DNA of 64,000 nt from Podarcis pityusensis. Its lineage: Eukaryota. The position numbers and the translations under genes are program-made. Under the pieces are notes generated by a model. That model saw only the letters and a list, made by a program, of their open reading frames with translations. It was not told where the DNA came from and did no database searches. Below, piece after piece: positions 27,701-30,700 of the stretch. The stretch lies in assembly GCA_964106645.2 (NCBI GenBank), contig OZ067049.1; one strand, given 5' to 3'. The first letter of the stretch is position 1. Each line of letters starts with the position of its first letter.

Positions 27701-30700
27701 ATCTCCCTCTTAACAAACTCCCAGCCATCATGAACTCCCTTTCCTTTTAGTATTACTGTCCATGGGATCTCACCCAGCACTTCCCTAAGTTTTATGAAGT
27801 CGGCTTTCTTAAAGTCAAGAAATTGAGTCCTAGTATGCTTGACTGCTCCTTTCCGCTGTATAGTAAACTTCAGAAGAGCATGATCACTCGCGCCTAACGA
27901 TCCTTCCACTTCTACCCCACTAACCAGTCATCAACATTGGTTAGGACCAGATCTAAAATGGCTGTTCCTCTTGTTGCTTCTCCCACTTTCTGGACAATGA
28001 AGTTGTCTGCAAGGCCAGTGAGGAATCTGTTTGACCTTATGCTCTTGGCTGAGTTTGACATCCAACAAATATCCGGGTAATTGAAGTCCCCCATTACTAC
28101 TATCTCCCTTCCTTTTGCATGCTTGGCCATCTGTTCCAGGAAGGCATCATCTATGTCCTCCGTTTGGCTTGGGGATCTATAGTAAACTCCCACAGTGAGG
28201 TCACTGTTATTCTTCTCTCCCTTAATTTTGACCCAAATGCTCTCACTTTGGCTTTGAGGTTCTAAATCTTGGATCTCTTCACAGGTATACACATCCCTGA
28301 CATATAACGCCACTCCTCCTCCTTTCTTGTCTGGTCTGTTTCTCTGAAATAGATTGTATCCCCCCATTATTACATTCCAATCGTGGGACTTATCCCACCA
28401 GGTTTCAGTGATGCCTATTATGTCATATTTAGTTTGCTGTACCAAGAGCTCAAGCTCATCTTGTTTATTTCCCATGCTTTGCGCATTAGTGTACAGACAT
28501 TGAAGTCCATTAATCATTCCCCCGTGTCTTTTATTTAAGGATTTTTTCCTCCCACCACTAGGTCTGTGTGCTGTTTGCTCCATTTGGTGTATGACATTTG
28601 GATGATCATCTTCATCAATTGATAGACTCCTACCTTCAGGAGCACTGTCTCCCTCCCCCACATAAGTCAGTTTAAAGCCCTCCTGATGAGGTTTCTGAGA
28701 TTTTTGGCAAAAACATTTCTCCCAACCGTTGTGAGGTGCAGCCCATCGCTTGCCAGAAGTCCATCTTCAAGAAACTGCAGTCCGTGATCTAAGAATCCAA
28801 ACCGTTCCTGTTTACACCATTTGCGAAGCCAGCTGTTCACTTCCACTATTTTTCCCTCTCTCCCTGGGCCACGTCGTTCAACTGGGAGGACAGATGAGAT
28901 GACAATTTGTGCATTTAATTGCTTCAACTTCCTGCCCAGAGCCTCGTAGTCTCTTTTGATCTTCTGGAGGCTATTGCTTGCAGTGTCATTGGTTCCCACA
29001 TGAACCAAGAGGAAGGGGTATTTGTCAGTGGGTTTTATGATTCCTTGCAGTCGTTCAGTTACATCTTGGATCTTAGCCCCGGGGAGACAGCACACTTCCC
29101 GAGACATCTTGTCAGGCCCACAGATCACTGCTTCTGTTCCCCTCAGTAGGGAATCCCCTATCACCACTACACGCCTCCTCTTAGGTTTGGTCGGGGTTCT
29201 TCCGTGAGCTGTCCGTTCCAAGGTCGCCTGCACATTCCCTGAGGACTGACTTTGCTGCTCGTGTTCATATACCTGATCGAGTGTAATGAGGGAGAGATCC
29301 TCAAATGGAGTCTGCTCTTCGTCTTCCATGCTAGGGGAGAGGACCTCAAAGCGATTGTGTATTTCTAAACAATCAGAGCGAACCTTGGGCCTCCTACTTC
29401 TTTGAGTCACGTTTCTCCATATATCTGGCTCCTGTGTTGGTGTACTAGCCTCCTTGTCAGGGGAGTCCCCTGTCTCCTCCTTGGTGGAGACGTTGTGCTC
29501 TGTTGCTTCCAAGAAAAGCTCCAGCTCCCTAATTCTTTGGAGCGTAGCTACACGTTCCTCCAGTTGCTGGACTTTGTCTTTTAAGAGGGCAATCAACATG
29601 CAATTGCTGCAGGTAAAGCTGCCTGCAACCTTTGGCAAGATGGCAAACATTGCACAGGAACCGCAGGCGACTGCAGCTGTTCCCTCCCCCTCCATCTTGA
29701 GAACGTGTCGTTGGGGGTGGCTACAGCGGTCCTCCATCATAAAAAGCGTGAAGACAAATAACTCCCCCCACAAAAAAAAACACAACATGCGACTCGTCAG
29801 GTTGGCTGCAGCCTGCATAATGCAGCAAAAGCTGGTGCTGGACAATTCCTGTAGTATATTGACTTCAGCAGACTGGGCCACATGTGGTGCAGACCTAGTG
29901 CATACTAAGAGTACTATGAGACACTTCCGCTAATCCTTATGAGAGTCACTGGGCATAAGAGTCAGACCAAGTTACCCATTCTCATGCCAAACCTATTTGG
30001 ATTAGTTTCATGCTCTCCGATAACCTTGAGATATATATATCTTTCACTCCCTGCATTAATGGTTTCACTGACCTTGTGCAATTGATCTGCATTTTGTTGC
30101 CAGTGAGGAGACAGTTTCTTGGTACCTGCCTTTAAAGTTGTGTTGTTTGTCAAGGGTTGCAGCTCTCATTACACTGATAAGGCACATTCTCCATTTCCTG
30201 GATTTCTCTGCTGAGGACTTCCAGAGCACATTTAGGCCACTCTGATTTTTAAAATATTGGTAATTTTAGGAGCGGACTTTGAATACAATGTTGCCAACAT
30301 ACTGAAGTGCCAAACAAAAAGTGTTAAAGAAATAACAGAGTCTAAGCCAGAATTTTCATTATCACAACACTCATGTTAAAGCTATGGATAGCTGAGTTGT
30401 TATATGAAATATGAAAATCTAATTGTTTTGCACCAAATGCATTTTACAAAATGCAGGATAAAAATAGTTCAGTGCTGTTTCTCTTCTGTGCTTTCTTTTG
30501 GAGCAAGACTGCTTTTATGGCGGAGTTATTACAGCCGGGTGTTTGCAATCAAAATGCTGATCCAGGCAAAATCACCACACAATAATACTAACCCCCACCC
30601 AAGGGCTGTTTGAAGTAATAAAATATGGATCAGAATAAAATTAAAGTGCTTCTGTAATGGAAGAATATGAGCTGCAATTCAACTAACTTGAAGGCCCTGG

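Follow-up and report, generated by a model that had tools for sequence, protein, structure and literature searches.

How the second open reading frame (ORF) of a vertebrate CR1 retrotransposon is translated is the question raised by a locus of Podarcis pityusensis, where the first ORF ends directly on a T TTA AAC heptamer and the second lies in the -1 frame. The translation of ORF2 in two-ORF LINEs is a long-standing question that has been studied mainly in L1 and SART1, and in most vertebrate genomes CR1 is the retrotransposon that dominates. A passage of PMC3708506 calls the translation of CR1 ORF2 unclear. We analyzed a window of 64,000 nucleotides (contig OZ067049.1) and compared its junction with those of related elements. 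Judged from these comparisons, the junction is a real, deeply conserved feature, most likely a programmed -1 frameshift with an unusual linear downstream element.

The element is a copy of a young, high-copy CR1 family, delimited by its 3' repeats and by similarity to other copies at positions 25658..29779 on the minus strand. The 5' edge is approximate; similarity to other copies starts at 29777-29781 in 28 of 30 loci. A first look at the family gave 1,420 candidates, and the 40 that were scored were 99 to 100% identical. The ORF list and Pfam together define an ORF1 of 342 amino acids (28667..29695, minus strand), with an N-terminal Cys motif, an SGNH esterase (PF13472, E value 2.7e-9) and a C terminus reading RALN-stop; it also matched the esterase structure 4C1B (E value 1.6e-23). 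The ORF2 frame (25741..28676, minus strand) carries an APE endonuclease (PF03372, E value 7.8e-16) and a reverse transcriptase (RT) (PF00078, E value 1e-34). It is broken by a one-base frameshift near 27920, so the window copy itself cannot encode a whole ORF2. The 3' untranslated region (UTR) (25658..25740, minus strand) ends in short ATTCTATG repeats. Short 3' repeats of the ATTCTRTG type without poly(A) are the canonical vertebrate CR1 end, and the element fits this pattern. With its esterase ORF1, its APE and RT domains in ORF2 and its short 3' repeats, the element is a member of the canonical vertebrate CR1 LINEs with an esterase ORF1, and it shares all of these features with the elements described in passages of PMC13343379 and of PMC3905857, the latter reporting 4C1B from zebrafish ZfL2-1. 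Named homologues come from reptiles, birds, and frogs, the closest named ORF1 being that of Podarcis muralis at 95%. Other, older CR1 copies are present in the window, with 3' ends at 22943, 35397, and 45852 on the plus strand and at 41461 on the minus strand.

When the sequence was re-read, ORF1 was indeed found to end AGG GCT TTA AAC TGA on the minus strand, as the first-pass annotation had stated, with TTTAAAC at 28676-28670 in the X_XXY_YYZ phase of ORF1. This slippery heptamer, U_UUA_AAC (28670..28676, minus strand), is marked out by its sequence and its conservation. It is adjoined by the ORF1 stop codon (28667..28669, minus strand), which is TGA here and TAG or TAA in other families. 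Alignment delimits two further minus-strand features, a 10-nt spacer (28660..28669) that is fixed in length and variable in sequence, with 41% identity between two lizard families, and the G-run motif GGGGG-A-GGGAGAC (28647..28659), a candidate frameshift stimulator. A -1 slip would lead into a 61-codon linker (28494..28676, minus strand) that runs from the slip site to the first endonuclease (EN) motif. The in-frame ATGs of the linker, from 28583 and 28517, are -1-frame codons 32 and 54, in agreement with an earlier count of two ahead of EN. The -1 slip had also been said to enter the ORF2 frame and to stay open through the endonuclease; the frame is the right one and runs open into the endonuclease (ORF 27912-28766, open for 254 codons from the heptamer), with ORF2 of this copy interrupted by the one-base frameshift. 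For the proposed -1 reading FKLTY...GEGD, FKL and GEGD are present and the Tyr is private to the window copy, 29 of 30 loci having Asn.

TTTAAAC occurs once on the sense strand between the ORF1 start and the ORF2 stop (3,955 nt). The same interval holds 10 further X-X-X-Y-Y-Y-Z strings in any phase, so that the heptamer motif alone is weak and it is conservation that lifts it above chance. The heptamer was intact in all 87 young-family loci examined, all of them best-scoring copies and a few of them one copy fetched twice; this says little about selection. No heptamer variant was listed among the contigs of four DNA runs, which belong mostly to the same young family.

For a comparison at greater depth, we aligned 16 junctions, one copy each of two lizard families and 14 bird-like loci, fetched without regard to the heptamer except that the older lizard family entered through a pattern containing it. 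The bird-like loci came from a metagenome scan seeded on esterase-start motifs, about 140 to 170 codons upstream of the junction, which yielded 61 loci, 14 of them reaching the junction and resembling bird CR1. Pairwise nucleotide identity among the 16 junctions ranged from 0.36 to 0.88, with a mean of 0.58. TTTAAAC was present in 13 of the 14 bird-like loci, the other (L037) reading T TTT AAC. Across the alignment, the wobble base of codon -3 was T in 16/16, Leu -2 was TTA in 15/15 and Asn -1 was AAC in 16/16, and just 1 of 133 upstream third positions was as conserved (at least 93%), a Trp column; these counts come from related sequences, of which 14 of 16 are bird-like, and so are not independent; they give a contrast within one alignment, not a probability. 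Among conserved upstream columns, the invariant ones numbered 0/18 for six-fold, 0/19 for four-fold, and 1/15 for two-fold codons. The mean top-codon share upstream was 0.59 for six-fold and 0.58 for four-fold columns, and Leu -10 was spelled with all six codons. The residue ahead of L-N changes (A, S, C, or G), and its third base is constantly T. By this alignment the heptamer is kept as nucleotides, beyond protein need, and not merely as residues. Two observations that the first-pass annotation had named as fatal to its proposal were absent: no synonymous variation destroying the heptamer was seen in the junction alignments, and the two lizard families and the bird-like loci unbroken by indels share an ORF1/ORF2 offset of -1. 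The features of a programmed -1 frameshift cassette that we found are thus an in-phase X_XXY_YYZ heptamer, an open -1 ORF at a conserved offset, and conservation of the heptamer, with indel-broken copies deviating.

The older lizard family, whose copies are 80 to 88% like the query, was entered through the heptamer-holding pattern (4 matches, 2 of them real; reversed control, 2), and the DNA search query included the junction. Among its decayed copies, the heptamer was intact in 17 of 29, and decay there was no greater than upstream (majority share, 0.92 versus 0.88). The distance from heptamer to EN motif was 183 nt, the same as in the young family, in 12 of 23 measurable copies, and 15 of the 23 were in the -1 frame. 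The -1 frame of the linker contained no stop shared by these copies; the +1 frame has many. Identity between the two families was 0.92 for the heptamer, 0.88 for the G-run motif, and 0.77 for the start of EN, against 0.41 for the stop and spacer and 0.46 for the remaining linker. Searches of the same genome with distant ORF1 proteins and neutral patterns returned the young family only or no match, viral contigs gave no match, and prokaryote genome contigs gave one short contig.

More distant junctions were sought in the consensus table of the PMC13343379 supplement, taking the first 400 letters of each row and searching for the motif itself, an approach biased towards finding it. Of 23 matches to TTTAAAC followed by a stop, 18 were junctions, judged by eye, in rows of 12 species that, by their row prefixes, include alligator, crocodile, Pogona, bullfrog, coelacanth, bowfin, chimaera, ray, sawfish, catshark, and dogfish. 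In the same part of the table, six synonymous spellings of L-N-TAG gave 12 matches and no junction; with TAA or TGA there were 51 matches in all, and no junction among the first 4 listed for each of the 6 spellings. Two parts of the table that were covered whole held three junctions, all three with the heptamer. The passages covered of the PMC4316615 supplement held no ORF1/ORF2 junction. Near the ORF2 end of avian CR1 consensuses in that supplement there is a second TTTAAACT followed by a purine run, apparently an in-frame F-K-L, which is absent from the lizard element. One row of the PMC13343379 table labelled Crack, AldAff_Crack-2, has an esterase-like end and a CR1-type junction; a passage of the same paper states that no ORF1 was detected in vertebrate Crack. 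At the protein level, the gene model of a tortoise (P0074) runs from ORF1 directly into FKL and the endonuclease, so the -1 layout is present in a distant family. A point against the U_UUA_AAC reading comes from a CR1 family in which two ORF1 proteins (P0006 and P0013) end in E-L-N, as seen from the protein sequence; the first position of the heptamer there cannot be U but must be G or A. Equine arteritis virus has a site of the G_UUA_AAC type (PMC5009743).

A GGGAG/CTCCT hairpin had been suggested as the downstream structure, an idea that we abandoned because it folds no better than shuffled sequence (z = -0.05). Indeed, we found no conserved RNA structure 3' of the heptamer: z was near 0 in most junctions (best, -2.1), RNAalifold gave 0 consensus pairs over 13 junctions, and folding without explicit pseudoknot modelling did not find the stem-loop 5 to 9 nt downstream that belongs to a frameshift cassette. 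All 13 aligned amniote-type junctions have an unpaired GGGGG at a distance of exactly 10 nt from the heptamer. The first G falls on the wobble position of codons that specify different residues, and the Gly codon in the run is GGG throughout, so the G-run is kept as RNA. Of the 18 published consensus junctions, whose rows contain deletions, 6 have the run at exactly 10 nt, and one fish row lacks it. We infer that the G-run is a candidate frameshift stimulator, linear rather than folded. The CR1 spacer of 10 nt is longer than the 5 to 8 nt usual for structured stimulators, and the optimum for stimulation by a G-quadruplex is 6 to 8 nt (passages of PMC3919603). By the G4 mode of ViennaRNA a G-quadruplex is not general, one forming in only 2 of 14 junctions (L041 and L044). 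We rejected pairing between the G-run and the distant 3' UTR, a site that ranked 20 of 153 for the window element and 55 of 134 for L036. Separately, one bird-like subfamily (L032, L036, L043, L044, and L050) has a local hairpin of the CCAGGC...GCCTGG type about 28 nt after the heptamer, absent elsewhere and too far from the slip site for a classical stimulator.

Could the heptamer have been fixed for other reasons? Protein constraint on A-L-N, combined with shared ancestry and codon bias, would require no recoding at all, and 60 of 80 ORF1 homologues, related sequences from lizards, snakes, turtles, frogs, birds, and other contigs, do end exactly in L-N. The residue before it in those 60 is A in 45, T in 7, Y in 3, E in 2, G in 2, and C in 1; the other 20 are mostly truncated, fused, or read-through gene models, apart from one that ends RALI and one distant protein that ends otherwise. 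However, other conserved Leu, Asn, and Ala codons vary freely in the same alignment, and the crystallized zebrafish LINE esterase 4C1B stops two residues beyond the one that corresponds to residue 173 of 177, so that the esterase folds without a counterpart of the last L-N. We regard this explanation as largely refuted by the codon comparison and give it the slightest chance of the three considered here. An RNA-processing signal is hardly more credible. TTTAAA is a minor poly(A) hexamer and G-runs are hnRNP H/F sites, so that the motif might act in weak polyadenylation, its hexamer helped by a G-rich enhancer on the 3' side, or alternatively as a splice signal, and produce an ORF1-only or re-joined mRNA. 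Yet the raw reads of three RNA runs from a related organism, which span both strands of the junction, contain no joints, and no pile-up of read ends is listed near it, which is modest evidence against splicing or polyadenylation there, since the reads covered are 6 to 12% of each run and part of the rows, and come from many copies and both strands. Nor is there a fixed splice acceptor, the base pair after the heptamer being AG, GA, or AA, and the fixed C, the phase, and the open -1 frame would be left unexplained.

Termination-reinitiation, which we consider unlikely, would release ORF1p and yield a separate ORF2p by restarting at an AUG or near-cognate codon, either at codons 4 to 6 behind the stop or at Met54 before EN, with the heptamer and G-run acting as reinitiation signals. 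Possible starts do exist. Codon 4-5 of the -1 frame is ATG in 5 of 14 bird-like loci and GTG or TTG in 4 more (9/14), the GTG at codon 6 of the lizard element has A at -3 and G at +4, and Met54 is partly common to both lizard families, being present in the young one and in 6 of 12 copies of the older. In L1, the AUG of ORF2 can be replaced by any sense codon (PMC1965478, in part), and SART1 uses an overlapping UAAUG (PMC3708506, in part). The ORF1 start, ATG GAG GGG GAG GGA (29695-29681, minus strand), also resembles the junction sequence GTG GGG GAG GGA (28661-28647, minus strand), which could be a hint of a GUG start for ORF2 or chance. Against this stands the absence of any start position common to the families. 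We found no conserved start codon overlapping or near the ORF1 stop; the codon 4-5 ATG is absent from both lizard families and from the alligator protein P0143, and most older lizard copies, as well as P0143, have no start at codons 4 to 6. In some families the whole linker lacks one: among 10 ORF2 N termini showing the whole linker, 4 (P0108, P0121, P0167, and P0143) have no Met between FKL and the EN motif, as is also true of locus L057, and the other 6 have a Met. In the young family, four out-of-frame AUGs precede the first in-frame AUG. The phase-perfect X_XXY_YYZ, fixed at synonymous sites, would also be unexplained. As to access from upstream, 8 of 12 bird-like loci have a -1-frame stop 1 to 5 codons ahead of the heptamer, so F-K-L is unreachable there from an upstream start. 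Downstream, the frame is open from heptamer to EN motif in L032, L033, L036, L041, L043, L055, and L057, and contains one stop in L035; indels disrupt it in L050 and L066, and in the remaining loci it is truncated. Start codons are found in some families, at no position common to all, and reinitiation, which may also use non-AUG codons, could occur in some families, where it and frameshifting may operate together.

We therefore return to programmed -1 frameshifting, by which the CR1 junction would give an ORF1-ORF2 fusion, and which we hold to be the probable explanation. The earlier suggestion of an esterase-EN-RT fusion made in the manner of gag-pol is supported by the phase, the offset, the nucleotide conservation, and the lack of a universal AUG, from which we infer slippage and fusion. 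Most ribosomes would stop at the end of ORF1 and release ORF1p. A minority would slip one base back on U_UUA_AAC, presumably by tandem slippage of tRNA-Leu and tRNA-Asn, and read on for about 976 codons, giving an esterase-endonuclease-RT fusion predicted by coordinate arithmetic at about 1,320 amino acids. On mammalian ribosomes, few heptamers are shiftier than U_UUA_AAC (PMC5009743, in part). The pause might be aided by the G-run, either through a bound protein or as a weak G-quadruplex, and the adjacent stop codon may contribute. Such an arrangement would set a high ORF1p:ORF2p ratio and tie the RT to the ORF1p particle, as in gag-pol.

The resemblance to retroviral gag-pol and coronaviral 1a/1b (infectious bronchitis virus, IBV, uses U_UUA_AAC; PMC5009743, in part) extends to the heptamer, its phase, its place at the end of a structural ORF, and the polymerase ORF in the -1 frame. 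Unlike those systems, CR1 is a non-LTR element without a conserved pseudoknot or hairpin 5 to 8 nt downstream and without a protease domain to cleave the fusion. Non-LTR precedents for frameshifting exist in TRE5-A and TRE3-A of Dictyostelium, APE-type elements that both need a -1 frameshift for ORF2 according to a figure legend in the review PMC5911963, and in HeT-A, with frameshifting within gag (PMC5009743, in part). The ORF1 and host of the Dictyostelium elements are unrelated to those of CR1. In the arterivirus PRRSV, nsp1beta-PCBP acts on CCCANCUCC, 11 nt 3' of the shift site (PMC5009743, in part), which is comparable by analogy only to the linear CR1 motif at about 10 nt; the PRRSV motif is C-rich and protein bound, whereas that of CR1 is G-rich. 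L1 and SART1 share with CR1 a bicistronic LINE RNA and low-level ORF2, but neither the spacer between ORFs of L1 nor the overlapping UAAUG of SART1 is a layout conserved in CR1. No description of a frameshift signal in CR1 was found in the passages searched of PMC13343379, PMC3708506, PMC3905857, PMC5009743, PMC5911963, PMC5006619, PMC13405545, PMC11835228, PMC3919603, PMC4255032, PMC6609765, PMC1925062, and PMC1965478 and of the supplements of PMC13343379 and PMC4316615; the founding CR1 papers (Haas 1997, Kajikawa 1997, and Kapitonov and Jurka 2003) lie outside that scope and may remark on the overlap. The term frameshift is absent from the passages covered of PMC13343379 and PMC3905857, as is CR1 from the first 300,000 characters of PMC5009743.

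More tentatively, and with a good deal of doubt, we propose that in the canonical CR1 of jawed vertebrates all ORF2 activity might be made as an uncleaved fusion through a -1 frameshift kept since the split of the cartilaginous fishes, and that either ORF1p or a host protein binding the G-run might switch the shift at the unpaired GGGGG 10 nt downstream. This would be trans-activated frameshifting in a LINE. If frameshifting is the mechanism, CR1 ORF2p has been annotated with the wrong N terminus, its RT is carried on the esterase ORF1p, and CR1 expression constructs must retain the ORF1/ORF2 junction. The cassette of 30 nt is testable by reporter, and its stimulator would be unlike the usual folded kind.

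Some database entries for pieces of CR1 ORF2 carry the names of host genes, for example 'adaptin ear-binding coat-associated protein 1' (P0107, P0113, P0122, P0139, and others). A CR1 ORF1 from a 2.9-kb contig is recorded as an SGNH hydrolase of Klebsiella pneumoniae (P0042), and a weak match lies on a 506-bp Providencia contig (L092); both are probably vertebrate DNA inside bacterial records.
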